Below are positions 28,081 to 64,000 of a DNA stretch of 64,000 bases, in pieces (position 1 is the first letter of the stretch; the number at the start of each line of letters is the position of its first letter). The notes below the pieces were generated by a model, which was not told the DNA's origin, searched no databases, and saw only the letters and a program-made list of their open reading frames with translations. A program made the translations under genes and the position numbers. Source of the DNA: Gemmatimonadales bacterium (GTDB taxonomy: Bacteria; Gemmatimonadota; Gemmatimonadetes; Gemmatimonadales; GWC2-71-9); assembly GCA_036279355.1 (NCBI GenBank), contig DASUJH010000028.1:133353-197352 (forward strand), given 5' to 3'.

Positions 28081-29961
28081 CTACTGCTTGACCGCCGGTG
28101 ACTTGAGCGCGAACACGGTCAGCACGCCGCCCTGGTTGGAGAACTGACCGGCATCGCCGAACGCGCCCAGCGCGCCCAGGCCCGCCGTCGGGTCCTCGGC
28201 CCCAATGCCGGCCGCCACACCGATGCCCGCCCAGCCGCCGATGCCCGAAAGCACCGCGACGTACTGCTGGCCATCGGGACCCTGGTACGTCATCGGGTTG
28301 CCGATGATGCCGGACGGCGTCTTGTACTCCCAGAGGAGCTTGCCGCTCTTCTGATCGACCGCCTTGAGCCAGCCGTCCATGGTGCCGTAGAAGGCGAGAC
28401 CGCCGGCGGTGGTCAGCACGCCACCGTACGCCGCCAGGTTTTCCTTGTCTTCCCAGACCACCTTGCCTTGCATCGGATCCCACGCGATGAACCGACCGCG
28501 GTTACCGCCCGGGCCCGGGTACATCCGCACGATCGCGCCGACGTACGGCTGGCCGGCCGAGTACTTCACCTCGACGCCTTCATAATCCATGCAGATGTTG
28601 TTCGTCGGGACGTAGAAGTACCCCGTCAGCGGGGAGTAGGACGACGGCTGCTGGTCCTTGAAGCCGATCGCCGCGGGGCAGATGCCCTCGGTGTTGTGCT
28701 TCGAGGTCGTGCCGTACTTCGGGTCCTTGTGCGGAATGCCGGTCGAAAGGTCCACACCGGTTGCCCAGTTCACCGGGCCGTAGGGCTTGGCCACGATCAG
28801 CTTGCCGTTGGTGCGATCGATCGTGTAACCGAATCCGTTCCGGTCGAAGTGCGCGAGCAGCTTCTTCCCGTTCCGGTCGAACAGTACGTTCTCGTTGACG
28901 CCGTCATAGTCCCACTCGTCGTGCGGCGTCATCTGGTAGGCCCATTCCACCGTTCCGTCATCGGGGTGGCGCGCGAAGATGGTCATCGACCATTTGTTGT
29001 CGCCCGGCCGCTGATCGGGATTCCAGGTGCCCGGGTTGCCGGTGCTGATGTACACCAGGTCGAGCTGGGGGTCGTAGGAGTACCAGCCCCACGTGGTGCC
29101 GCCGCCGCGCTTCCACTCATCGCTGCCGTTCCAGGTGCTCACACCCAGGTCCTTGCCCTTGTGCGAGGCATAGTTCGCGTTGCCGACGCCATTCTGAATA
29201 CCGACCTCGGCATCGGGGCCGGTGCTGTACATGGTCCAGAGATGCTTGCCGCTGTTGGCGTCGAACGCCGAGACGCGGCCGCGGACGCCGAACTCACCGC
29301 CCGAGATGCCGGCGATCACGATTTCCTTGCCCGACTTGGTCTTGATGTAAATCGGGGCATTGGTCATCGTGGCGCCCTCCTTGTACCCCGTGGCTTCCGG
29401 CCCCGAGGGCGACGAAGCCGGGTGCTTCACCTTCCACAGCTCCTTGCCGGTCTTGGCGTCGAGCGCCAGGAGCTCACCCTCGAGCAGCTCGATGTAAAGC
29501 TTGCCGCTCGGGTTGTACGCCAGACCGCGGTTCACCAGGTCGCAGCAGGCGATTGGAATCGCGTCGGGCGACTGGTTGGGCACGTACTTCCAGATCTGCG
29601 GCGCGCCGGGCTTCGACAGGTCGAGCGCGTACACGATGTTGGGGAAGCTCGTCTGCACGTACATCACGTTCCCGACGACGAGCGGGTTGCCCTCGTGACC
29701 GCGGAGCGTGCCGGTCGAGAACGACCAGACGGGCCGAAGCTGGGCGATGTTTGACGTGGTGATCTGATTGAGGGGGCTGAAGCGGGTAAGGGCGTAGTCG
29801 CGCCCGGTCATCCACCACTCCCCCTTGGGAGCGTTCATTGTCCAGGCCCCGCCCGACCAGGACCCCTGCGGGACGTTCTGCGCGGCCACCGGGCTCGTTC
29901 CGAATGCCAGGAGGCACGCCATCAACCCGCCGACCGGCAGATAAGCCATCGATCGTTTCAT
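28081..29961 (-). CDS. xoxF: PQQ-dependent methanol/alcohol dehydrogenase, XoxF (lanthanide) type, paralog 1
   Basis: ORF 28081..30177 trimmed to the ATG at 29961 (MKRSMAYLPVGGLMACLLAFGTSPVAAQ signal; GAGG RBS). Vicinal disulfide IACCDLVNRG. The WDYDG motif carries the extra Asp that distinguishes XoxF from Ca-type MxaF (WDYAG). No mxaI small subunit nearby. Confidence 0.9.
   Translation of the reverse strand: MKRSMAYLPVGGLMACLLAFGTSPVAAQNVPQGSWSGGAWTMNAPKGEWWMTGRDYALTRFSPLNQITTSNIAQLRPVWSFSTGTLRGHEGNPLVVGNVMYVQTSFPNIVYALDLSKPGAPQIWKYVPNQSPDAIPIACCDLVNRGLAYNPSGKLYIELLEGELLALDAKTGKELWKVKHPASSPSGPEATGYKEGATMTNAPIYIKTKSGKEIVIAGISGGEFGVRGRVSAFDANSGKHLWTMYSTGPDAEVGIQNGVGNANYASHKGKDLGVSTWNGSDEWKRGGGTTWGWYSYDPQLDLVYISTGNPGTWNPDQRPGDNKWSMTIFARHPDDGTVEWAYQMTPHDEWDYDGVNENVLFDRNGKKLLAHFDRNGFGYTIDRTNGKLIVAKPYGPVNWATGVDLSTGIPHKDPKYGTTSKHNTEGICPAAIGFKDQQPSSYSPLTGYFYVPTNNICMDYEGVEVKYSAGQPYVGAIVRMYPGPGGNRGRFIAWDPMQGKVVWEDKENLAAYGGVLTTAGGLAFYGTMDGWLKAVDQKSGKLLWEYKTPSGIIGNPMTYQGPDGQQYVAVLSGIGGWAGIGVAAGIGAEDPTAGLGALGAFGDAGQFSNQGGVLTVFALKSPAVKQ
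28154..28254. repeat. 101-nt block perfectly identical to 32058..32158 (xoxF paralog pair)
   Basis: Direct comparison of the two 3' coding regions. The surrounding sequence matches at most positions. Confidence 0.85.
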
Positions 29962-30297
29962 TGCTGTTGACCTCACATGTGACGGTATCGTGGACGGTAT
30001 GCGGCTGCCAAACCGGCTGATTGCGGGCTGGCGGCCGGAAGGGTGCATCCCGTCGATAGGCGGTCCGCCTGGCGGGGTGCAAATACGTGGGGCGGGCGGG
30101 CTGCGGGGCAGCAAAGAGTGCCGGAGGGGGTGGGGGGTACACCCCATCCAGCCAACTATATGGGCACGCGCAAACATAGGCCTGCGTCGCTTTCTGACCT
30201 GAACTATGGGCCCTAATGTCCGACGCGCCGCACCACGGGACCGTGATCTGCATCACATCGCTCGGTCAATCGCGCGCTACCGACCCCCGAACGCGAC

Positions 30298-32005: not shown

Positions 32006-33820
32006 TTAGAGCGAGAATACCGTAAGCACGCCGCCCTGGTTGGTGAACTGACCGGCGTCGCCGAACGCGCCCAGCGCGCCCAGGCCCGCCGTCGGGTCCT
32101 CGGCCCCAATGCCGGCCGCCACACCGATGCCCGCCCAGCCGCCGATGCCCGAAAGCACGGCCACGTACTGCTTCTTGTCTGGGCCAAGATAGGTCATCGG
32201 GTTGCCGATGATGCCGGACGGCGTCTTGAACTGCCACAGCAGCTTGCCGGTCTTCTGGTCGACCGCCTTGAGCCAGCCTTCCATGGTGCCGTAGAAGGCG
32301 AGACCGCCGGCGGTGGTCAGCACGCCGCCGTACGCGGCCAGGTTCTCCTTGTCTTCCCAGACCACCTTGCCCGCCATCGGATCCCACGCAATGAACCGGC
32401 CGCGATTGCCACCCGGGCCGGGGAACATGCGCACGATCGCGCCGACGTACGGCTGGCCGGCCGAGTACTTCACCTCGACGCCTTCATAGTCCATGCAGAT
32501 GTTGTTCGCCGGGACGTAGAAGTAGCCGGTGAGCGGCGAGTACGCGGAGGGCTGCTGGTCCTTGAAGCCGATCGCCGCGGGGCAGATGCCCTCGGTGTTG
32601 TGCTTCGAGGTCGTGCCGTACTTCGGGTCCTTCTTCGGGATGCCGGTGGAGAGATCCACGCCCGTGGTCCAGTTGACCGGACCGAAGGGCTTGGCCACGA
32701 TCAGCTTGCCGTTGGTGCGATCGATCGTGTAGCCGATGCCGTTACGATCGAAGTGCGCCAGGAGCTTCTGACCGCCGTGCTCGAAGAGCACGTTCTCGTT
32801 GACGCCGTCATAGTCCCACTCATCGTGCGGCGTCATCTGGTAGGCCCAGACGACCTTGCCCGTCTCCGGCTTGCGCGCGAAGATGGTCATCGACCACTTG
32901 TTGTCGCCCGGCCGCTGATCGGGATTCCAGGTGCCCGGGTTGCCGGTGCTGACATACAGGTTGTCGAGCTCGGGGTCGTAGGAGTACCAGCCCCACGTGG
33001 TGCCGCCGCCGTGCTTCCACTCGTCGCCCTGCCAAGTCGAGACGCCGAGGTCCTTGCCTTTGTGCGAGGCGTAGTTCGCATTGGCGACGCCGTTCTCGAT
33101 GCCGACTTCGTCGTCCGGACCCGTGCTGTACATGGTCCAGAGATGTTTGCCGCTGTTGGCGTCGAACGCCGAGACGCGGCCGCGGACGCCGAACTCACCG
33201 CCCGAGATGCCGGTGATCACGATGTCCTTGATCACGATCGGGGCGACCGTCATGGTGGCGCCCTGCTTGTAGCCGGTCGCCTCGGGACCCGCGTTCGAGT
33301 GATCGGGGTGCTTCACCTTCCACAGCTCCTTGCCGGTCTTGGCGTCGAGCGCCAGGAGCTCACCCTCGAGCAGGTTGATGTAGAGCTTGCCGCTCGGATG
33401 GTAGGCCAGACCGCGGTTCACCAGGTCGCAGCAGGCGATTGGGATCGCGTCGGGCGACTGGTTGGGCACGTACTTCCAGATCTGCGGCGCGCCGGGCTTC
33501 GACAGATCGAGCGCGTACACGATGTTGGGGAAGCTCGTGTGCACGTACATCACGTTCCCGACGACGAGCGGGTTGCCCTCGTGACCGCGCAACGTGCCGG
33601 TCGACATGGTCCACGCCGCCTTCAGGTCCTTCACGTTCGCCGTCGTGATCTGCTTGAGCGGGCTGTACCGCTGCAAGCTGTAATCACGCCCGGTGATCTG
33701 CCAGTCGCCCTCGGGCGCGTTGCGGGTCCACTCCCCGCCGCGTGCCTGGGCGTTGGCGACGGCCGCGAACGCGAGGCTCGCAGCGACGCCGGACAACACC
33801 TGCCGGGTAATGCGGTTCAT
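32006..33820 (-). CDS. xoxF: PQQ-dependent methanol/alcohol dehydrogenase, XoxF (lanthanide) type, paralog 2
   Basis: ORF 32006..34141 trimmed to the ATG at 33820 (MNRITRQVLSGVAASLAFAAVANAQ signal; GAGG RBS). Has the same IACCDLVNRG and WDYDG motifs as paralog 1. Confidence 0.9.
   Translation of the reverse strand: MNRITRQVLSGVAASLAFAAVANAQARGGEWTRNAPEGDWQITGRDYSLQRYSPLKQITTANVKDLKAAWTMSTGTLRGHEGNPLVVGNVMYVHTSFPNIVYALDLSKPGAPQIWKYVPNQSPDAIPIACCDLVNRGLAYHPSGKLYINLLEGELLALDAKTGKELWKVKHPDHSNAGPEATGYKQGATMTVAPIVIKDIVITGISGGEFGVRGRVSAFDANSGKHLWTMYSTGPDDEVGIENGVANANYASHKGKDLGVSTWQGDEWKHGGGTTWGWYSYDPELDNLYVSTGNPGTWNPDQRPGDNKWSMTIFARKPETGKVVWAYQMTPHDEWDYDGVNENVLFEHGGQKLLAHFDRNGIGYTIDRTNGKLIVAKPFGPVNWTTGVDLSTGIPKKDPKYGTTSKHNTEGICPAAIGFKDQQPSAYSPLTGYFYVPANNICMDYEGVEVKYSAGQPYVGAIVRMFPGPGGNRGRFIAWDPMAGKVVWEDKENLAAYGGVLTTAGGLAFYGTMEGWLKAVDQKTGKLLWQFKTPSGIIGNPMTYLGPDKKQYVAVLSGIGGWAGIGVAAGIGAEDPTAGLGALGAFGDAGQFTNQGGVLTVFSL
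32058..32158. repeat. 101-nt block perfectly identical to 28154..28254
   Basis: See the partner feature at 28154..28254. Confidence 0.85.
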
Positions 33821-33863
33821 AACTGACCTCAGGATGAAGGGTGATTCTCCTGCTGTACAGCAC

Positions 33864-33955
33864 CTACGTGGTGTTGCGTTGCCCTGCGTGGTGGTGCGCT
33901 GTGGGTGGTGCACTGCGTGAAGCGTGCTGCGTGAAGCGTGCTGCGGTGGAGCGCT
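33864..33955. repeat. array of about six imperfect 14-15-nt direct repeats (CTGCGTGGTGGTGCG-like) in the xoxF2 leader
   Basis: Units: ctacgtggtgttgcg.., ctgcgtggtggtgcg, ctgtgggtggtgca, ctgcgtgaagcgtg (x2, exact, 33913-33940), ctgcggtggagcgct. Lies 45-135 nt upstream of the xoxF2 ATG. Confidence 0.7.
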
Positions 33956-34299
33956 CTGCCGCCTCGACTCGGTGCGGCGCGGGTACCCCGGAAACCCGCG
34001 CCCACCTGCCGGGGCCCTTACGACCGAGCAGCCGGAGTTCTCCGCTCGATCACCGGCCCCGCCGCGCGGCCTCGGGGGCCGGGCCACAAACTCGGGTACG
34101 CGGGCATGGAACCGGTTGGATGCATGCCTCGCTGGAGGCATGACATTGATGTACGCCTAAAAGGGCCGTTGCGCCAGACCGGCCGCACGGGAAACCCGCG
34201 ATCACACCTTTGGTCAAACCGCCGCCCACGTCTGACGATGAGGGGAAAGACGACCTCGGGTACTCCGGCTTCTACATGTTTATGCGGACTTGGGGCTCC

Positions 34300-41556: not shown

Positions 41557-41732
41557 CCCACCACCGCACGCGCTGCAAAGTCCCACACCGGCCCGCTCCC
41601 ACCGCACCGACTCGGCAGGGTAAGTGGATTCCAGCCTGAGGTTTACGGCGGGCGCCCCGGGGGGCATGTCCCTTGCCTTCGGCGGGTCGTTCCTTCCTTG
41701 AATACCCTTTGACGCGGGCGGTCCCTCCCAGC

Positions 41733-44700
41733 ATGGTGCTCCGATCGGGTCCACTCCGCAGCCGCTTCGGCCGGCGCCTTCTGGCGCTATTCGTCGGCTG
41801 CGCGCTCGTGCCGATCGGGATCCTCGCTGCGCTCTCCTTCCGGCACATGACGCGGCAGCTCGAGGCCCAGAGCGAGCGCCGGCTGCTGGAGAGCGACGAG
41901 GCGCTCGCGCGCGCGATTTTCGAGCGCCTGCTGTTGCTCGAGTCGACGCTCCGCAACGTGCCGCCGCGTGCCGTGGCCGAGCTGGTGGATCCGCCCAGGA
42001 CCCCCAGAGCGCCGCGGTACGAGCCCGCGCGCCGGCCGGTCCACATCGCGGGCAACCGCACGCAAGGCGCGCGCGCCGACGGGCGAATCGCGCTCGGTGG
42101 AATCGCGATGCGGCGAGCGGAGGCTGCGCCTCGCCGCGTGAAGCCCGCACCTCCCGCGCAGGATCCCGAGACGGCGCATCTGCTCGCCGCCGGCATCGAT
42201 CTGCTTGCGCGCCGCCGCTTCACGGCACTCGAGTGGTGGGGGCCCAAGGGCCGCCACACTGCGATCTTCGGCCGGTTGACGGCGATCCCGGCGCTCGACG
42301 ACGCCGACAGCGCCGACGTGCTCGCCGGCGGCACACTCCTGCGCACCGGACGGGGCGAGCACGGGGCGCACGTCTACATGCTGCGCGCGCTCGACCGCGC
42401 CGGCGGTCCGCCCGGTTTCTTCGTGGGCGAAATCAGCCCGGAATACCTCTGGGGAACCCACGAGGAGAGCATGCCGTCGCCCGGCACCGCGATGGCGGTG
42501 GTGAACGACGCGGGCACGGTACTCACCGGATTCGCACCGAGGCCGACCAGCACCGCGTCGCGCGACGGCATCGTGGTCGACACCCTGACCCGCGGCGCGT
42601 TCGCATCGACCATCGGTGGGCGGCCGTATCTGTCGGTGCACTGGCCCATCGTGCTCCAGAAGACCTTTGCCGCGCAGAACTGGACCCTCGTGCTGAGCGA
42701 GTCGCAGGCCGCGGTGATGGAGCCGATGACGGACTTCCAGCCGACGTTTCTCCTCATCGTCGCCTTCTGTACGCTCGCGGTGCTGCTGCTCAGCGTAAGC
42801 CAGATCCGCCGCAGCCTGGTGCCGCTCGAGCGGCTGCAGGAGGGGACCCGTCGGATCGCGCTCAGGGACTTCGAGAGCCGCGTGGAAGTGTCGAGCCGTG
42901 ACGAGTTCGCCGAGCTGGCCGACTCGTTCAACGGCATGGCGATGCGCTTGGGCCGGCAGTTCCAGGCGCTGGCGACGGCGGCCGAGATCGACCGGACCGT
43001 GCTCGCCGCGACGGACAGCACGGCCGTCGTCGACGCCCTGCTCGCGCGCATTGGCGACGTCTATCCTTGCCGCGCGGCCAGTGTCACGCTGATCTCGCCG
43101 GACCGCGCAGAGCCGCCGGTGAGCAGGGTCCAAGTGTGCGGCAGCGATGCGCGACAATATCCGGTGCCGGTGGCACTCGGCGGAGCCGAGTTGCGCCAGC
43201 TCGCGACGGGGCCCGAAATCCTCGAGCTGAATGCGGGGGAGGACCGGCCGGCGCTGCTTGCGCCCATTGCCGACGCGGGCGCTGAATCGTTCGTGATTCT
43301 TCCGCTCCGCTACCAGCGCCAGCTCGCCGGCGTACTCGCGCTCGGCGGGGCGCCGGGGCTCGAGTGCACCCCCGACGATCTGCTACAGGCGCGCCGGCTG
43401 GCCGATCAGGTGGCCGTGGCGCTCGCCAATGCGGGGATGATCGAGCAGGTACGCACGCTGGCCTACTTCGACTGTCTCACCGGGCTGCTCAACCGCTCGT
43501 CGTACACCGCGCGGGTGGATGCCGCCATCGCCGACGCGAAGCGCACCCGGCGGCAGCTGGCCGTCTACTTCGTCGACCTCGACGGCTTCGGCCGCATCAA
43601 CGATACGCTGGGGCATGAGGCGGGGGATGAGTTGCTGCGCCAGGTCGCGGCCCGGCTGCGCGCGTCCAGGGCCGACGAAGAAACGGCGGCGGTGCTGTCG
43701 GCGGGCGCACCGAGCATCGACGTGGCCCGGCTCGGCGGCGACGAATTCGCCGTCGTGCTCGCCGGGCTCGACGAGGCCGACCAAGCGATAGCCTTCGCCC
43801 GCCGCACGCTTGCCGCTCTGGCCCCGCCGTTCCGCCTCGGGGCGCACGAGATTTTCATGACTGCGAGCGTCGGCGTTGCGTTTCACCCGGGCGATGGCGA
43901 GGACGCCGCGATGCTCCTCGCGCACGCCGACACGGCGATGTACCAGGCCAAGGGCCAGGGCGGCAACGGCTATCAGCTCTACGCCCGGTCGATGAACGCC
44001 GCCGCGTTGCACCGGCTCACGCTGGAGGGCGATCTCCGCCGTGCGCTCGAGGGCGACGAGCTGGAGCTGCACTACCAGCCGATCGTGGACGCCACCTCGG
44101 GCGGACTGGCCGGCGCGGAAGCCCTCGTGCGGTGGCGCCACCCGTCGCTCGGGCTGCTGCTTCCCGGCGAGTTCGTGCCGCTCGCCGAGGAGACCGGCCT
44201 GATCTGCCCGCTCGGTGAGTGGGTGCTGCGCGCCGCGTGCGCGCAGCACCGGGCCTGGCAGCAGGCGGGGCTTCCCCCGATCCGGGTCGTAGTGAACCTC
44301 GCGAGCCGCCAGCTCCGGCAGGGCACGCTCGTGGCCACGGTCCGGGAGGTGCTCGCGGAAACCGGTATCGCCTCGCGCCATCTGGGCCTCGAGCTCACCG
44401 AGAGTGCGCTGATGGATCGCGAGCACGAGACCCTTTCTGCGCTGCACGCGCTCCGGGCGATGGGCGTACAGCTCTCGATCGACGACTTCGGCACCGGATA
44501 CTCCTCGCTCAGCTACCTCAAGCATTTCCCGGTGGACGCGCTCAAGATCGATCGCGCGTTCGTGCGCGATCTCGTCACCCGCCCGAAGGACGCCGCGATC
44601 ACGGCGGCGATCATCGCGATGGCGCACGCGCTCGAGCTCAAGGTCGTGGCCGAGGGCGTCGAGACCGATGCGCATCTCGCCTTCCTGCGCCGCCTCGGGT

Positions 44701-44831
44701 GCGACGAGATCCAGGGTCACCTGGTGGGCCGCGCCATGCCGGCGGACAAGCTCGCTGAACGGCTCGCGAGCGGGCCGGTGGTGGGCCGGTCGGCCCGGCG
44801 GGCGCGGAAGGTGGGCACGCTCGGTCGCTGA
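41733..44831 (+). CDS. membrane sensor with HAMP, GAF-like, GGDEF and EAL domains (c-di-GMP turnover)
   Basis: ORF 41673 (TTG)..44831, with an ATG at 41733. Two TM helices flank a periplasmic region of about 300 aa. HAMP (PLERLQEGTRRIALRDFESRV), an intact GGDEF motif (RLGGDEFAVVL) and EAL motifs (EALVRW, ELTES, DDFGTGYSSLSYL, EGVET). Confidence 0.85.
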   Translation: MVLRSGPLRSRFGRRLLALFVGCALVPIGILAALSFRHMTRQLEAQSERRLLESDEALARAIFERLLLLESTLRNVPPRAVAELVDPPRTPRAPRYEPARRPVHIAGNRTQGARADGRIALGGIAMRRAEAAPRRVKPAPPAQDPETAHLLAAGIDLLARRRFTALEWWGPKGRHTAIFGRLTAIPALDDADSADVLAGGTLLRTGRGEHGAHVYMLRALDRAGGPPGFFVGEISPEYLWGTHEESMPSPGTAMAVVNDAGTVLTGFAPRPTSTASRDGIVVDTLTRGAFASTIGGRPYLSVHWPIVLQKTFAAQNWTLVLSESQAAVMEPMTDFQPTFLLIVAFCTLAVLLLSVSQIRRSLVPLERLQEGTRRIALRDFESRVEVSSRDEFAELADSFNGMAMRLGRQFQALATAAEIDRTVLAATDSTAVVDALLARIGDVYPCRAASVTLISPDRAEPPVSRVQVCGSDARQYPVPVALGGAELRQLATGPEILELNAGEDRPALLAPIADAGAESFVILPLRYQRQLAGVLALGGAPGLECTPDDLLQARRLADQVAVALANAGMIEQVRTLAYFDCLTGLLNRSSYTARVDAAIADAKRTRRQLAVYFVDLDGFGRINDTLGHEAGDELLRQVAARLRASRADEETAAVLSAGAPSIDVARLGGDEFAVVLAGLDEADQAIAFARRTLAALAPPFRLGAHEIFMTASVGVAFHPGDGEDAAMLLAHADTAMYQAKGQGGNGYQLYARSMNAAALHRLTLEGDLRRALEGDELELHYQPIVDATSGGLAGAEALVRWRHPSLGLLLPGEFVPLAEETGLICPLGEWVLRAACAQHRAWQQAGLPPIRVVVNLASRQLRQGTLVATVREVLAETGIASRHLGLELTESALMDREHETLSALHALRAMGVQLSIDDFGTGYSSLSYLKHFPVDALKIDRAFVRDLVTRPKDAAITAAIIAMAHALELKVVAEGVETDAHLAFLRRLGCDEIQGHLVGRAMPADKLAERLASGPVVGRSARRARKVGTLGR

Positions 44832-59784: not shown

Positions 59785-60297
59785 TCAGCCCTCGGCGCCG
59801 CTCGCGAACGGATGCCGCGCGCTCTTGTACTTGGAGAGCACCTCGTCCACCGACGGCTTGCCGGCGAGCGCGCGCTGGATCGACTCCTTCACCGCCTGAT
59901 AGTTGTAGTCGTAGATCTTCTTGTCGTCGTCGGCCTGCCAGTGGATGAACACGCCGACCAGGATGCAGTAGTCGTTGGCCTTGTCCTTCGGAATGACGCC
60001 CGAATCGACGCTGTCCATCACCGCCCGGGCGACCGCGGCCTGCGCCGGCCCGAACATCTGCACCGCCTGCTTGGCGCCCTTGATGGTGACCTTGTTGAAG
60101 AGCACCGTGTCGGGCTTGCAGGGGAGGTTCGGGGTCACCACGGCGAGCAGGGTGGTGAAGCCATCGGTGTTGCGCGAGAGGGCCTGGGTGAAGGCGGCGC
60201 CCAGGGGCCCCGACTTCGACCCGATCATCAGGTCGATGTGGGCGACTTCATTGCCCCCGCCGACGAGGGACTCGCCAATGAAGAAATCCGCGGCCAT
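59785..60297 (-). CDS. fae: formaldehyde-activating enzyme
   Basis: ORF 59785..60564 trimmed to the ATG at 60297 (GGAGG 5 nt upstream), 170 aa. [47 protein letters not shown] and HPFA motifs. Confidence 0.9.
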
Positions 60298-60334
60298 GGG
60301 TGCCTCCATTTTCGGTTCGGTAAACATGGACAGA

Positions 60335-60340
60335 ATTTTA
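60335..60340 (-). promoter_or_regulatory. candidate -10 element (TAAAAT) for fae
   Basis: An AT-only hexamer conspicuous in GC-rich DNA, about 38 nt upstream of the fae ATG. No convincing -35. Confidence 0.3.
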
Positions 60341-60645
60341 CGGAGCATGATCGAATCCGCGCGCTGGAGTTCGGGTGCAGGAGCAGCGCGGCGGCCGGAC
60401 GGGGCCACGCAGTCCCGCCAAGGCGGGTAGCTCGGGCGTTGATTGATCCACGCGACGAAAGCGGCCCTAGTATGGGACTGGCTTGGAAGCCTGTCAAGTT
60501 TGCCGTCAGCACGTGACCGAGGCTGCGTACATGAAACTGGATTGTTCAATACGCGGTGCTCCAAGGCCCGTACAAACGCCGAAGTGGCAATCTCGCGGGG
60601 AATCTACCGGACTCCCGTGCCTCCATTCTCACGAGAGGGACCACC

Positions 60646-61653
60646 ATGACCGACGAGCTTCGACCCTTGGACCGGCAAACCTTTTGCGCTCAGCATCTTA
60701 TGACCACCACGCCTCCGATTTGGCACGATCGAAACAAGTTGGAGGTCTTCGCAATCGCCTGCCCACCAGGGAGCGTTCATGGCGGTCAGCTCGAGTACAC
60801 ACGTTGGCCCGATGTTGCGCTCCCGGCACAGGGAGCATGGGTGGGTATCAAGGACACCGTTGAACATCGAGAAGGCGTTTACGATTACGTGCCACTGGCC
60901 GAAGGCAGAAACGCGTGCGAATGGCACGTCAACTTCGCCGACCCAAACCTGTTCGTGGCCTATGGCTCCCCCCTTTTGGCACAAGACGAGCTTCAGGTGT
61001 TGGAGCACCCGGCACTCGGCGCGCTGAAAGAGGCGCTCGGCGCGGCGCGGACCCCGATGCTCACGACGGAACGGGGGCGGCCGACGCCGATTTTGGTGCT
61101 CGGTGCAGAACGCCGATGCAAGGTCGCCACGGATCGGAGCGTCGACGAGGGCCGGCCCGATGGTCTATACGGTCAGGCATTCGCGCGGGCCACACTGGAG
61201 ACCGTCCGCCGCGCGACGCGCCGCGTCGAGCCGCCGACAGTTACCAATCTCATCGCAATGACGGCTCCGAGCGGAGGGTATGGCCGATACAGCGCATCCG
61301 AAGTCGAAAATATCTTGGCCACCGCGTGGTCGGCATTTCGAGCGGCCTGCGTAGAGACGGCCCGACACGCGGGCACTGACTGCTCAGTTATCGTGCACAC
61401 CGGCTTCTGGGGATGCGGTGCTTTCGGTGGCAATCGGGAGTTAATGGCGATGGTTCAGGTGATCGCTGCTCGGATGGCGGGCGTGCGACAGCTCGTGTTT
61501 CATACCTTCGATCGCGGAGGCACGGCCGCGTTCAGCAAAGCTCTGTGCAATATCGAGCAGGAGTTCCCGACTGCCGAAGCGCTGCCCACCCGACGGCTCA
61601 TTGAAGGCATAGCGGGGCTGGGCCTCGTCTGGGGGGAGAGCGACGGAAACTGA
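60646..61653 (+). CDS. poly(ADP-ribose) glycohydrolase (canonical/eukaryote-type PARG fold) homolog with degenerate signature
   Basis: ORF 60556..61653 trimmed to the ATG at 60646 (AGAGGGA RBS). [39 protein letters not shown] parallels human PARG [39 protein letters not shown] (recalled from memory). Upstream, [20 protein letters not shown] aligns at identical spacing to DFAN..GGGx7QEE. Confidence 0.7.
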   Translation: [335 protein letters not shown]

Positions 61654-61675
61654 CCTTCGCTCGGGCGGCCTGCCG

Positions 61676-62137
61676 TCAAAGTCCTGACAGATTCGCCTCG
61701 GTCGCGCCGTCGGACAGCCGCGGGAAGTGTCCCGTCCGAACAGCGGACGCTGGGCTTGGTACTACGGTGCACAGATCGATCCGGTCGATTTCGCCTTTTG
61801 CCACCTCCAGGAGAACGAGAGCGACCGGTTCGTTGGTCCGACCCTGGTGCAACAACACGCATGGACGGCCCGGCCACGCCGACACCAGACGAATGCGCGC
61901 CCCCCGCTGGTCGCCGCACAGTCCAAGCTCCGCACGCACGGCGGCCTCAGGGGTCGCTCGGATGGTCGCCATCTTGCCGCGCAGGTATTCGGCGATTGCC
62001 TCGCGGCCCCGCAATGGCATCATAACGTTCTGTGATTCGTAGACCGCCTGCGCGCTGAGATGCGATATCACACGGTCCGCATCAAGCTCGTTCCACGCAA
62101 GTGCGTACTCACGGATCAATTGCTCTTCGGTCGGCAC
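61676..62137 (-). CDS. NTF2-like/SnoaL-like small protein
   Basis: ORF 61676..62188; probable GTG start at 62137 or 62155. EEQLIREYALAWNELDADRVISHLSAQAVYES is a typical SnoaL/NTF2 N-terminus. Confidence 0.55.
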   Translation of the reverse strand: MPTEEQLIREYALAWNELDADRVISHLSAQAVYESQNVMMPLRGREAIAEYLRGKMATIRATPEAAVRAELGLCGDQRGARIRLVSAWPGRPCVLLHQGRTNEPVALVLLEVAKGEIDRIDLCTVVPSPASAVRTGHFPRLSDGATEANLSGL

Positions 62138-62737
62138 AGTTCGCCCTCGTGGCACAGGTATGGCCAACGTGGAACGCATCGCGCGCACGCGTATTTGGAT
62201 TCAGCGGAGCCCGAACGGCACCACGTTTCGAACTGCATGTCACAGAACTGCGGCTGCTCGGGCCGCTTCGCGTAGCGCGGGCCAACGAAAACGACCGCGG
62301 CACTCAACGCCGAGTTCCTGGGAGGCGGCTCGGACATAATAGCGGTAAGTCGCGCGTAGCAGCTCATCCCGATTTGGGGCGCTGTCAGCGACATCGCGCA
62401 GCCCCTTCTCCCAAGTTTCGTCCTCCCGCTGGAAAACATCGTACAAAGCCTGCTATCATCCGGGGGCAACTCGACGTCCTTCAACTCATCTAGCACGCGT
62501 GCCCAACTCCAACAGAGCGAGCCGCTCGCCGGGCGATGTCGCGAAGACGCGGGCCGCACGTGTTTCGCGGACCGCGAACGCGAGAAAGACGGCCGCGCTA
62601 TCAGGGCTGCAAAGTTCGGGTACAGTGACGTGTGGTTCCGGGGGAGGCCCGTTGGCCTGCGCTCGCACTGGGGTCGAGATGAGCAGGAGCGCAGCTGCGC
62701 AAGTCATGACGTGCTGAAGGCGAATGCGCCATTGCAT
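62116..62737 (-). pseudogene. possible decayed gene: three abutting minus-strand ORF fragments in different frames, the first with a signal peptide
   Basis: Fragments 62486..62737 (MTCAAALLLISTPVRAQA signal), 62240..62446 and 62116..62559 tile the region without gaps but in three frames. No family recognised. Confidence 0.3.
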
Positions 62738-63186
62738 TGGGCTTACCCTCTCATTTCAGGTGTTCACCTTTCCCGCGTGCGCACTTTCCCTGCCCTCAAG
62801 TGCTCGATGAATCCCTTCGATGCGCTCGTTCAACGCGACAGGAAGCCTTTCCCAGCGAGGCGAGCTCGAGCGGGCGTTTGCGGCGGAAGCGGAACTGTCG
62901 GTTATATAAGCGGACCACAAATTGTGCGCGAGGATCCGTAAGGTCCTATCTCCGCGATAACTCTACAGCGCAATGAAATGCTCCGATCCTCGCGACAAGT
63001 GCCGCGCCTCGATGCCTGCAGCCATGATTTGACGAAGCGCGTCGCCGCACCCCCGCGCTCGCGCTACTCGTCAGCGAGGTCGTAGCCGCATTGAACAACT
63101 GCGTAGCTCGTGAACATCGCGGCCATCCAGTCGGGCAAGTGTGGAACGCGCAGTCCCACCGCTTCCTACCTCCAGGCTAAGTCGAT

Positions 63187-63215
63187 TTGACCGTCGTTTA
63201 GCTTCGGTGTATATT
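63187..63215 (+). promoter_or_regulatory. near-consensus sigma-70 promoter
   Basis: TTGACC (63187-63192), an exact 17-nt spacer, then TATATT (63210-63215), about 37 nt upstream of the ATG at 63252. Confidence 0.5.
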
Positions 63216-63251
63216 CGGTTTTCGATATACCCACAGCTCAGGACCAGTCCG

Positions 63252-63560
63252 ATGACCGCACGGAAGCTCCAGCCGAGGGAGCGCTGGCTCCGTTATCTCA
63301 ACCGGCTGAGCGCCGGTGGACGGAGCAACATGTACGGAGCCGTTCCCTATCTCGCCGCGGCATTTGGCCTCGACCGGCAAACGGCCTTTCAACTCGTCTG
63401 CGAGTGGGTGGACGCCCACCAGCCGGCGGCGGATTCGACGCCCACGCCTCCGAAGTCGCGCGGCGTCGACGCTCCGGCCACCGCAACGGTCGCGGCCAGC
63501 CGGCCTGCCAGGAAGGCTGGCGTCAAGCGCAAACGCCCGCGCGTCCGGCGCGCCGCCTGA
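63252..63560 (+). CDS. small hypothetical protein with strongly basic C-terminal tail
   Basis: ORF 63141..63560 trimmed to the ATG at 63252 downstream of the promoter. MTARKLQPRERWLRYLNRLSAGG... ends in KAGVKRKRPRVRRAA. Confidence 0.45.
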   Translation: MTARKLQPRERWLRYLNRLSAGGRSNMYGAVPYLAAAFGLDRQTAFQLVCEWVDAHQPAADSTPTPPKSRGVDAPATATVAASRPARKAGVKRKRPRVRRAA

Positions 63561-63658
63561 CCTCCCGGCCCGAAGCCGCCGCTTAACCGGAGCCGCCTCC
63601 CGGCGTCCCTCTCCGCGGATGGCCCCTCGGGTCGTCCGACTCTCACATCGAGGCCGTT

Positions 63659-64000
63659 ATGAAGACCAGCATCCTGGTGGGTGGTATCGCGCTCGCCCTG
63701 ACGCTCGCGGCCCAACCGGCTCGGGCGCAGATCGTCGAGGCGGGCGTCGTCATCCGCAGCGGGCCGGTCGCCGGACACGTCATCTACGGGCCGCCGGTGC
63801 GCCGAGTCGTGGTGGAGCGCTACGCGCCGCGGGTGATCGTGGTGGAGCGCGTGCACGTGCCGCACGGTCGGGCGAACGGCTGGTGGCGCAAGCACGGCTA
63901 CCGCGCCACGACGGTTTACTACTACGGCGACGACGGCCGCTACTACGATCGTGGCTTCGACGGCCGCACGCGCGTTCGCGCCGTTGTGGTGTACGAGCGC
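63659..64000 (+). CDS. exported hypothetical protein, 3' end outside the window
   Basis: ATG at 63659. MKTSILVGGIALALTLAAQPARAQ signal peptide, then open to the window end (114 codons) with a Tyr/Arg/Val-rich repeat-like sequence. Absent from the ORF track because no stop codon is reached. Confidence 0.5.
   Translation, partial: MKTSILVGGIALALTLAAQPARAQIVEAGVVIRSGPVAGHVIYGPPVRRVVVERYAPRVIVVERVHVPHGRANGWWRKHGYRATTVYYYGDDGRYYDRGFDGRTRVRAVVVYER

Follow-up and report, generated by a model that had tools for sequence, protein, structure and literature searches.

A PARG-like gene with a conserved QDE catalytic-loop motif beside a one-carbon cluster of a Gemmatimonadales bacterium: a predicted ADP-ribosyl O-glycohydrolase

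The PARG-like gene and its surroundings

The window, the whole 64,000-nucleotide stretch of a Gemmatimonadales contig analysed here, carries a PARG-like gene of 335 codons plus stop on its forward strand (60646..61653), as delineated by the open reading frame list and translation, a match to Pfam PF05028 and an AlphaFold (AF2) model. The product matches exactly an NCBI entry named 'hypothetical protein VFW66_08420 [Gemmatimonadales bacterium]'. A longer reading frame could start from a GTG at 60556; the ATG at 60646 is favoured because the N-termini of homologues agree with it and a Shine-Dalgarno-like site (GAGAGGG, 60633..60639, forward strand) lies 6 nt 5' of it. As the earlier note had described, the gene diverges from fae, which encodes formaldehyde-activating enzyme (59785..60327, reverse strand; PF08714, E 6e-69), and is convergent with a SnoaL/NTF2-like gene 22 bp away (61676..62188, reverse strand), whose match to PF12680 falls just under the cutoff (26.5 bits vs 27). 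The fae gene is the last of an H4MPT C1 cluster, with which the PARG-like gene is functionally unconnected. No ADP-ribosyltransferase is recognisable nearby, again as the note had it: a Pfam scan of 46 ORFs of the window returned no match to the ART, PARP, DarT, Tpt1 or sirtuin families.

The GC drop noticed at the gene is borne out by a GC content of 0.642 in the bin 60001-64000 against 0.696 for the whole window, and by a GC3 of 0.70 for both the PARG-like and the SnoaL/NTF2-like gene compared with 0.92 for fae, 0.93 for mtdB and 0.85–0.88 for other neighbours. Together with small ORFs lacking family hits, the two genes form a compositionally atypical patch (60600..63600; GC3 about 0.70 vs 0.85–0.93). 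A search for mobile-element boundaries of the patch revealed neither a tRNA nor an Rfam family, and no flanking repeats that were convincing. This composition fits horizontal acquisition from bacteria, in favour of which we also count the patchy spread of the family. Since all close relatives are bacterial, any such transfer would have come from another bacterium and not directly from a eukaryote; the horizontal origin proposed in the note agrees with the composition. For this window, the gene is best described as an intact, probably horizontally acquired orphan lying outside the adjoining methylotrophy cluster.

Across about 87 homologous loci the PARG-like gene has no conserved neighbour. 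A conserved operon partner was sought by clustering the ORFs within 6 kb over 87 loci and was rejected, the largest cluster (8 loci) reflecting synteny of closely related cyanobacteria. The 131 directly flanking ORFs are scattered over 119 Pfam families with at most three members each and no enrichment, and PADLOC distributes them over 106 different models, again with at most three ORFs each; it returns no match for the 335-aa protein and no consistent defence-system context at the homologous loci. Neither C1 genes nor a PARP gene lie beside the PARG-like gene at any of the about 87 loci. The SnoaL/NTF2-like gene also adjoins an identical PARG-like gene on an independent Logan contig (L006), and at two further loci (L019 and L020) an NTF2-like gene likewise lies convergent and directly downstream. 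A functional link between the two genes was considered and the arrangement taken as coincidence; the two NTF2-like proteins have no detectable relatedness (BLASTP E 0.8), and no NTF2-like neighbour was found at any other homologous locus.

Informative fusions and neighbours are rare, involving a few per cent of family members. The recurrent fusion is to a DSP-PTPase domain, present in six proteins including representatives of Vicinamibacteria and Pseudomonadales, and single fusions join the family to nucleic-acid-binding or nuclease-like domains, namely a CCCH zinc finger, DUF429 and an RNAP alpha-CTD. Genes for ARH (PF03747) adjoin the PARG-like gene at four loci, one of them encoding a DSP-PTPase-ARH fusion, and in Chloroflexia a UvrD-PD-(D/E)XK helicase-nuclease gene lies directly downstream.

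Family assignment and predicted fold

The similarity of the product to PARG is far above chance level. PF05028 (PARG_cat_C) matches residues 201-290 (61246..61515, forward strand) at 48.8 bits, above its gathering cutoff (26.3 bits; E 8.6e-13), covering only profile positions 116-202 of 207. A phmmer comparison with the human, mouse and rat PARG chains gives E about 4e-6, a PDB search with the family profile gives E 3e-9, and hhalign against a vertebrate PARG profile gives a probability of 97% (E 7e-11) over residues 92-305. HMMER, Pfam and single-sequence hhalign align the C-terminal half only, the catalytic loop being aligned once the PARG profile was built. That profile is restricted to vertebrates. 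In searches for more diverse canonical PARGs, the matches listed for the 529-aa human domain all came from vertebrates, and a 103-aa fragment gave only short fragments.

The AF2 model (pLDDT 87.9, pTM 0.89) has the PARG-class macrodomain fold. In a Foldseek search of the PDB with this model the top 42 matches consist entirely of canonical PARGs (E 1e-10 to 7.5e-9; query-normalised TM 0.45–0.57), the best being the human, mouse, Drosophila and Tetrahymena enzymes (E 1e-10 to 1e-9, with human PARG at E 1e-10). Among viral matches, baculovirus PARGs rank first. The bacterial-type TcPARG matches more weakly than the canonical PARGs (E 3e-7), and TIGR02452, the model for the bacterial type, reaches only 18.6 bits against a cutoff of 50 and aligns with residues 195-292 alone. 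The earlier note had called the protein a homologue of canonical PARG, unlike the DUF2263 type, and had suggested profile searches and a structure prediction as checks; both the Pfam and TIGR02452 scores and the predicted fold agree with that assignment.

The product differs from vertebrate PARGs in its domain content. The accessory domain PARG_cat_N (PF20811), present in all vertebrate PARGs listed, has no match in it at E up to 1. Residues 1-89 (60646..60912, forward strand) form a family-specific N-terminal region, recognised in alignments, with conserved motifs of its own (HPPxW..NK, R53-W54 and Y-D-Y81), which is mostly well predicted in the AF2 model apart from residues 81-89 (pLDDT 66 for a 10-residue block). 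The protein ends in a second family-specific motif, WGxSDGN (residues 329-335; 61630..61650, forward strand), which forms the very C-terminus of nearly all members. Other macrodomain classes fit less well. The Pfam Macro family (MacroD type) is not reported at E up to 1, and of the MacroD-type motifs G[VIA][YF]G is present (as GAFG) and Nx6GG[VLI] is absent. The Arg-specific macrodomains MavL, Larg1 and DUF4804 resemble the product in being divergent and in lacking the PARG and MacroD signatures, yet they are active hydrolases with a new linkage specificity (PMC10951314). Their own motifs, [VIL]xGxGxGx[FWY] and WDxx[SA]xPGN[DE][FY][FWY] (PMC10951314), are absent from the product (pattern searches find no WDxx[SA] and no PGN), DUF4804 has no Pfam match, and both MavL and Larg1 are missing from the listed top 50 structure matches.

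Thousands of bacterial proteins, at 37-67% identity, are nearest to the product, compared with 17-20% for eukaryotic PARGs. Clustered at 50% identity, the family they make up has at least 1,282 clusters; it is referred to here as the QDE family after the catalytic-loop motif described below. A pattern-limited search through 185,579 species genomes recovered 288 relatives, and the 80 loci listed span at least 12 bacterial phyla. A phage- or plasmid-borne gene family is ruled out by its occurrence on 1 of 2.9 million viral contigs and 1 of 72,556 plasmids, the latter a 382-kb replicon of Treponema. A literature search found no paper that deals with the QDE family or 'DSP-PTPase', or that treats PARG together with gcADPR; canonical-type PARGs in bacteria are mentioned only in passing, with their role given as 'unknown' (PMC11833690).

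Catalytic loop and conservation

The region corresponding to the PARG catalytic loop spans residues 93-125 (60922..61020, forward strand), the counterpart of human PARG residues 734-766 (DFAN...GGG...QEE), and is near-invariant among 267 relatives. As in canonical PARG, the loop is placed between a β-strand ending in F-A and a helix starting with Q-acid-E. The correspondence is based on hhalign against the vertebrate-only profile and on predicted secondary structure, with posterior confidence of 8-9 for the NFAD/DFAN and QDE/QEE segments and 4-5 for FVAYG/FVGGG. The motifs quoted in the earlier note, NFAD (96-99), FVAYG (103-107) and QDE (113-115), are all present. Q113-D114-E115 (60982..60990, forward strand) align with human Q754-E755-E756, so that E115 pairs with the general acid Glu756 (confidence 9) and D114 stands at Glu755; the replacement of the first catalytic Glu by Asp that the note had read is thus recovered in the alignment and shared by 266 of the 267 relatives, with Q113 and E115 each kept in 265.

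Two loop changes come in addition to those in the note. N96-F97-A98-D99 (60931..60942, forward strand) align with human D737-F738-A739-N740, exchanging the positions of acid and amide (Asp737 to Asn at N96, Asn740 to Asp at D99); N96 is kept in 263 and D99 in 229 of the 267 relatives. The roles of the canonical catalytic residues are described in PMC3519477 and PMC4030884, and in bovine PARG the D737N and E755N mutants are inactive and still bind inhibitor (PMC3519477).

PARG enzymes are defined by the signature GGG-X6-8-QEE, which bacterial-type PARGs keep and the 335-aa protein lacks. GGG-x6-8-QEE occurs in 119 of 120 vertebrate PARGs, whereas even the relaxed GGG-x5-9-Q[ED]E occurs in 0 of the 267 family members. 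That the glycine triplet is replaced, as the note had stated, therefore holds, although the register is ambiguous: in place of GGG to F-V-A, hhalign favours the pairing FVGGG/FVAYG, a shift of two residues in which GGG corresponds to A-Y-G.

The C-terminal half retains the diphosphate-binding loop (residues 251-264; 61396..61437, forward strand), supported by phmmer, hhalign and conservation. Here GCGAFGG is identical to human 871-877 and F260 is the counterpart of Phe875 (Phe or Tyr in 260 of the 267 relatives), whereas F254 stands at Asn869, a position that is Phe or Tyr in the family. The note had placed this 39-residue PARG-like stretch at the end of the protein; the stretch is indeed present (residues 251-289), but 46 further residues follow, ending in WGESDGN. 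Y175 (61168..61170, forward strand) is a candidate counterpart of Tyr795, the 'tyrosine clasp' of canonical PARG, with a posterior confidence of only 1-2 in hhalign; it is present in 265 of the 267 relatives. The tyrosine clasp is absent from bacterial-type PARGs.

The altered loop is a family trait and not a sign of decay. QDE occurs in 265 of the 267 relatives (37-66% identity), and the present copy keeps all 55 of the 55 columns conserved at 90% or more, which speaks against the note's description of the catalytic signature as degenerate. E120-H121-P122 are likewise near-invariant in the 267 relatives, and the clade as a whole shares the near-invariant signature W-x-x-N-F-A-D-x2-L-F-x-A-Y-G-x2-L-F-A-Q-D-E-x-Q-V-x-E-H-P, found also in a Treponema homologue of 34% identity. 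Such constancy across a large bacterial family indicates strong purifying selection.

Predicted activity and alternatives

We interpret the product as an intact cytoplasmic member of a large bacterial clade of PF05028 type, predicted to act as a stand-alone ADP-ribosyl O-glycohydrolase whose catalytic loop has been rewired, and give this reading a probability of roughly 0.55. The relation to PARG combined with a strictly conserved catalytic motif of the family's own makes an ADP-ribose-removing enzyme with a changed target probable. At the level of sequence, the diphosphate-binding loop with its Phe875 counterpart and the counterpart of the general acid Glu756 are conserved. The product would bind ADP-ribose and, with E115 as the acid, cleave the O-glycosidic bond at C1'' of the distal ribose, catalysis being completed by rewired helper residues, namely Asp for Glu755 and the exchanged Asn/Asp for Asp737/Asn740. 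An aromatic residue would take the place of the glycine triplet, and combined with the helper-residue exchanges this suggests an altered leaving-group side. The protein may thereby serve as a stand-alone 'eraser' of ADP-ribose that a transferase encoded at another locus, or the toxin of a competitor, has attached; the leading candidate substrate is RNA or DNA bearing ADP-ribose on a ribose or a phosphate. Two observations weigh against a hydrolase: of the three acidic residues described as critical for canonical PARG, two are exchanged here, D737N alone being sufficient to kill the bovine enzyme (PMC3519477), and the GGG triplet that forms part of the defining signature is absent.

These same changes raise the possibility of a catalytically dead reader of ADP-ribose or PAR, in which the pocket is kept for binding and the altered loop no longer hydrolyses. 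The bovine mutants, inactive yet still able to bind inhibitor (PMC3519477), provide a precedent for the Asn and Asp counterparts of D737 and E755 and the lost GGG, and the lack of partner genes is compatible with such a role. However, readers usually let their catalytic positions drift, whereas here Q-D-E, E120-H121-P122 and N96/D99 hardly vary among relatives of 37-66% identity; the general-acid Glu is retained, and the recurrent fusion partners are enzymes (phosphatases, with ARH as a neighbour), as expected in a processing cascade, so that we consider a dead reader rather unlikely. An ordinary poly(ADP-ribose) glycohydrolase acting on PAR from a bacterial PARP whose gene lies in another part of the genome is quite improbable. 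The fold and diphosphate loop are those of canonical PARG, the candidate Tyr795 counterpart (of low hhalign confidence) would fit, and PARP/PARG sets exist in some bacteria (PMC4245714), but the GGG-X6-8-QEE signature is missing, scans of window ORFs and of genes beside the about 87 homologous loci revealed no PARP, and the 288 relatives contrast with 28 bacterial PARP homologues in 27 species, a figure from an old survey of 2014 (PMC4245714).

Hydrolysis or other processing of a small NAD-derived nucleotide instead of a macromolecule (ADP-ribose-1''-phosphate, 2'-phospho-ADPr, O-acetyl-ADPr, or signals with a ribose-ribose linkage such as gcADPR or di-ADPR) would agree with the fused DSP-PTPases, which match Pfam PTP-SAK, Tc-R-P and PTP-NADK, names suggestive of NAD kinase fusions and polymorphic toxin systems. 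An ARPP-1 domain in one neighbour points the same way, as do the bulky residues that, judging from hhalign, replace GGG where the n-1 PAR unit would lie. Against this, no TIR, SIR2 or cyclase partner occurs among the flanking ORFs, no paper linking PARG to gcADPR was found, and nucleic acids are suggested instead by the fusions to zinc-finger, alpha-CTD and DUF429 domains; we regard this assignment as improbable. Two further readings, a role within the fae/H4MPT one-carbon cluster and a recent transfer directly out of a eukaryote, could be argued from the intergenic region shared with fae and the mainly eukaryotic membership of the Pfam family. Both are effectively refuted by the homologous loci, none of which has C1 genes, by a GC3 sharply unlike that of the cluster, and by nearest relatives that are bacterial and far closer than the eukaryotic PARGs.

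Returning to the predicted O-glycohydrolase, a role in nucleic-acid processing or toxin immunity is inferred from the rare fusions and neighbours and by analogy with DUF2263-type PARGs. The bacterial type (DUF2263/TIGR02452; T. curvata 3SIH, D. radiodurans DRB0099, S. coelicolor SCO0909) also comprises PARG-class macrodomains of bacteria that are often orphans and horizontally mobile, with proposed roles in removing ADP-ribose from nucleic acids and in immunity to ART toxins (PMC11833690). PARG-type enzymes were recently found to reverse ADP-ribosylation of RNA 2'-OH groups and phosphate ends, including 5'-phosphate-linked ADP-ribose, and orphan PARGs of bacteria confer protection from the RhsP2 toxin (PMC11833690), which makes the QDE family timely. 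At the same time, the family departs from the canonical PARGs with which it matches best (human 4B1H and 6OAK, Tetrahymena 4EPP, baculovirus) in being bacterial, without a fixed partner and at times fused to DSP-PTPase. In at least 1,282 clusters, preservation of the PARG fold, diphosphate loop and general-acid Glu is paired with exchanges that inactivate the canonical enzyme (D737N and a change at E755). Activity of the QDE proteins, if borne out, would mean that a PARG active site can be built in another way, and would probably add a new substrate class for ADP-ribose erasers.

A bolder and on balance doubtful proposal is that the QDE clade constitutes a distinct fourth class of PARG-like hydrolases, its rewired loop conferring a linkage specificity unlike that of any characterised macrodomain, either removing ADP-ribose from nucleic-acid ribose or terminal phosphate or cleaving intramolecular ribose-ribose bonds in NAD-derived immune signals (gcADPR). 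If true, it would be a widespread orphan detoxification or signal-erasing enzyme of soil and freshwater bacteria. In the nucleic-acid version, the fused cysteine phosphatase would trim the phosphate exposed by ADP-ribose removal. A comparable association is seen in D. radiodurans, where an operon joins PARG with a phosphatase/kinase (PMC11833690) much as the QDE family is joined with DSP-PTPase.

Gene, profile matches and predicted fold

The PARG-like gene occupies 60646-61653 on the forward strand, 335 codons followed by a stop (ORF list and translation), and its exact product is recorded as a 'hypothetical protein' in a Gemmatimonadales MAG. An alternative GTG 90 nt 5' of the ATG would lengthen the ORF; the ATG is preferred because it coincides in alignment with the start positions of homologues and has GAGAGGG 6 nt 5' of it. 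Both strings quoted in the earlier note occur in the protein, NFAD...FVAYG...QDE at residues 96-115 and the string closing with LVFHTFD at residues 251-289, though the second does not form the end of the protein as had been stated, 46 more residues following it.

The sole Pfam family for the protein is PF05028 (PARG_cat_C; 48.8 bits, cutoff 26.3), the match taking in the C-terminal part of the profile only, whereas the bacterial-type PARG model TIGR02452 gave 18.6 bits, below its cutoff of 50, in agreement with the proposed likeness to eukaryote-type rather than DUF2263-type PARG. PADLOC returned no match for the protein. An AlphaFold2 model built from a 20-sequence alignment (pLDDT 87.9, pTM 0.89) was compared with the PDB by Foldseek, and the best 42 matches were canonical PARGs only (human, mouse, rat, Drosophila and Tetrahymena; E 1e-10 to 7.5e-9), followed by T. 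curvata PARG (3e-7) and then MacroD-like proteins. In the viral library baculovirus PARGs were the named matches near the top, where several entries are unnamed. From sequence and predicted fold we put the probability that this is a PARG-class macrodomain binding ADP-ribose at about 0.9.

Catalytic loop and its conservation

The human PARG catalytic domain (529 aa, an exact match to PDB 6OAK chain A) served as reference, its numbering agreeing with the literature residues E755, E756, N740, N869, F875, F902 and Y795. While single-sequence comparisons aligned only residues 200-306 of the bacterial protein, hhalign against a profile of 13 vertebrate PARGs lengthened the match to residues 92-305 (probability 97%, E 7e-11). 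With high confidence this pairs N96-F-A-D99 with human D737-F-A-N740 and Q113-D114-E115 with Q754-E755-E756; with moderate confidence, and a two-residue shift, F103-V-A-Y-G107 with F742-V-G-G-G746; and with low confidence Y175 with Y795. The glycine triplet is thus gone, as the earlier note had it, in either register, but its pairing of GGG with F-V-A differs from that of hhalign and is kept as a possible ungapped alternative. The GCGAFGG diphosphate loop is the same in both proteins, F288 corresponds to F902, and N869 is replaced by F254.

Across 267 aligned members, 37-66% identical to the query, the catalytic loop is near-invariant: W93 (262 members), N96 (263), F97 (265), D99 (229), F103 (263), Y106 (250), Q113 (265), D114 (266), E115 (265), E120 (265), H121 (261) and P122 (265). 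By regular expression, F[AS]-x13-16-QDE occurs in 265/267 members and GGG-x5-9-Q[ED]E in none, while GGG-x6-8-QEE occurs in 119/120 vertebrate PARGs. At every one of the 55 columns with conservation of 90% or more the query has the consensus residue, which together with the near-invariance argues that QDE is a selected trait of the family and not decay. The earlier observation as a whole is borne out and its interpretation in part, 'degenerate' being better read as 'differently conserved'. Although the Pfam threshold is passed, the defining signature and the accessory domain of canonical PARG are missing, and we accordingly treat the query not as a PARG proper but as belonging to a variant clade within the PARG-like macrodomains, while sequence and model predict that it works like PARG. 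A single sentence in PMC11833690 refers to 'canonical PARG types' in some bacteria, with role unknown; our literature search found no description of the QDE signature, the clade size or the phosphatase fusions.

Relatives fall into 2,034 clusters at 90% identity among the candidates scored; clustering at 50% identity leaves at least 1,282 representatives, and 359 of these have E below 1e-30. A pattern-limited search through 185,579 genomes, each standing for one species, yielded 288 relatives; among 2.9 million viral contigs a single one encodes a relative. The 80 listed loci span Acidobacteriota, Planctomycetota, Chloroflexota, Gemmatimonadota, Hydrogenedentota, Synergistota, Actinomycetota, Myxococcota, Bacteroidota, Cyanobacteria, Verrucomicrobiota and Armatimonadota. 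Direct eukaryotic origin of the gene is effectively excluded. Among spirochaetes, a Treponema replicon of 382 kb encodes a homologue; the Treponema protein WP_002704062.1 (T. saccharophilum pTS2, NZ_AP025290.1 179429-196316) is 34% identical and keeps QDE and WxxGDGN, and around its gene about a dozen small hypothetical genes on the same strand, interspersed with leucine-rich-repeat proteins, resemble a set of orphan immunity genes.

Neighbours, fusions and predicted activity

ORF clustering within 6 kb at 87 loci gave no partner common beyond close relatives, and the 131 directly flanking ORFs fall into 119 Pfam families and 106 PADLOC models with at most three ORFs each. Four loci have an ADP-ribosylglycohydrolase (ARH, PF03747) gene close to the PARG-like gene, in one case overlapping its stop codon and in another as a DSP-PTPase-ARH fusion, with RmuC directly between the two genes and a WYL regulator nearby. 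This last arrangement forms a compact ADP-ribose-related neighbourhood in Candidatus Eisenbacteria and Deltaproteobacteria MAGs (L019 1-7040, L020 1-6891), in the order WYL/WCX regulator, 473-aa ORF (HEAGH motif; putative FtsH-like AAA/metalloprotease), fusion, RmuC and PARG-like gene, with a convergent NTF2-like gene 13 bp downstream. ORF clustering places WYL/WCX regulators in up to six loci, two of them confirmed by Pfam; tblastn found the L024-type regulator in four. In two uncultured Chloroflexia MAGs the neighbour is a helicase-nuclease. At L072 (10962-14834) the start of a 1,290-aa UvrD-helicase/PD-(D/E)XK-nuclease fusion overlaps the last 7 nt of the PARG-like gene, at its stop codon, which suggests translational coupling; at L064 (11074-14790) the equivalent position is the start of a 178-aa ORF from the same cluster, and a 1,239-aa helicase-nuclease ORF begins about 100 nt downstream. 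At L088 (1471-5653) a 1,120-aa HEPN_Swt1 and DUF499 protein begins 14 bp after the gene, together with a NOV_C protein; downstream of a Singulisphaera homologue (L002 9431-9700) lies a fragment sharing 74% identity with the HEPN part. Of the family proteins exceeding 385 aa, 21 in all, six begin with a DSP-type cysteine phosphatase domain (PTP-SAK, Tc-R-P or PTP-NADK), two of these from Vicinamibacteria and Pseudomonadales; DUF429, an RNA-polymerase alpha-CTD and a CCCH zinc finger are each found in one. One more, the 593-aa P0121 from a Logan contig, is a tandem duplication, residues 1-256 matching query 57-313 (E 2.5e-34) and 272-593 the full length.

In canonical PARG Glu756 is the catalytic acid and contacts the 1''-OH; the 2''-OH is bound by Glu755, which also takes part in positioning or activating water, and the 3''-OH by Asn740. 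Buried Asp737 steadies Glu755 and may relay protons, while the backbone at Gln754 and residues 871-875 holds the diphosphate, which Phe875 restrains (PMC3519477, PMC4030884). In the QDE family the counterparts of Gln754, Phe875 and the general acid Glu756 are retained along with the diphosphate loop, whereas all three distal-ribose residues are changed in a fixed and coordinated way (Glu755 to Asp, Asn and Asp swapped at 737 and 740) and the small glycines become Ala-Tyr-Gly (or Phe-x-Ala). ADP-ribose would still be bound and C1'' chemistry still performed by E115, helped by D114 and D99, with space and contacts altered on the leaving-group side, so that the acceptor may be other than the n-1 unit of PAR. 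An ordinary PAR-degrading PARG fits poorly with the unmatched GGG-QEE signature, and no PARP was seen among the 46 window ORFs scanned or next to the gene in about 87 homologous loci.

The D737N-like change would suit an inactive ADP-ribose reader, D737N and E755N having abolished activity but not inhibitor binding in canonical PARG (PMC3519477); against this the Q-D-E is invariant and the fusion partners are enzymes, and on sequence grounds we lean towards an active hydrolase. Hydrolysis of a small NAD-derived molecule would suit the PTP-NADK-type fusions and the single ARPP-1 neighbour, but neither TIR nor SIR2 occurs in the context. Given fusion partners that are phosphatases, nucleic-acid-binding domains or nuclease-like domains, ADP-ribose on nucleic-acid riboses or terminal phosphates is the leading, if tentative, candidate substrate. 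As a precedent, PARG-type enzymes can reverse ADP-ribosylation of RNA at 2'-OH groups and phosphate ends, and orphan PARGs of bacteria give protection from the RhsP2 toxin (PMC11833690). The lack of a fixed partner, the patchy phyletic spread and the atypical local GC3 would suit an orphan enzyme of protection or repair that is exchanged horizontally.

Local composition and the adjoining C1 cluster

The gene diverges from fae (59785-60327; PF08714, E 6e-69) and converges on a SnoaL/NTF2-like gene across a 22-bp gap, and the noted drop in GC there is real and chiefly a third-position effect: GC3 is 0.70 in both the PARG-like and SnoaL-like genes and 0.71 in ORF 63141-63560, against 0.92 in fae, 0.93 in the mtdB-like gene and 0.85-0.88 in the remaining genes compared. 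The rest of the low-GC3 patch (62200-63600) holds small ORFs only; 62486-62737 (reverse strand), 62360-62941 (forward) and 63141-63560 (forward) had no Pfam or NCBIfam match, and the patch showed no tRNA, Rfam family or flanking repeat that would delimit an island. A convergent NTF2/SnoaL-like gene 13-22 bp away occurs in two unrelated loci (L020 6481-6891; window 61676-62188), the two proteins having no detectable homology (BLASTP E 0.8); such a gene is absent from the other loci. The 46 ORFs scanned within the 64-kb window include no ART, PARP, DarT, Tpt1 or sirtuin, consistent with the lack of a nearby transferase in the earlier note.

The 26 kb upstream of the PARG-like gene (34-60 kb) is an H4MPT-dependent C1 cluster. 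A functional link of the gene to the fae cluster is effectively excluded, C1-type neighbours being found in none of the homologous loci. The full H4MPT-linked formaldehyde-oxidation cluster of this Gemmatimonadales MAG lies within 28081-60327 and comprises, among others, fae, mtdB-like, DUF1464, two ATP-grasp genes, fhcA/C/D-like genes, mch, CitG, PTPS, hydantoinase_A, pabB-like, a pterin-binding/DUF6513 protein and a GHMP kinase; with two PQQ-dependent dehydrogenases upstream (28081-30177 and 32006-34141) it suggests methylotrophic or formaldehyde-detoxifying capacity. The gene of a 1,052-aa HAMP-GAF-GGDEF-EAL signalling protein (41673-44831) separates the pterin-biosynthesis genes of the cluster from its hydantoinase-like gene.
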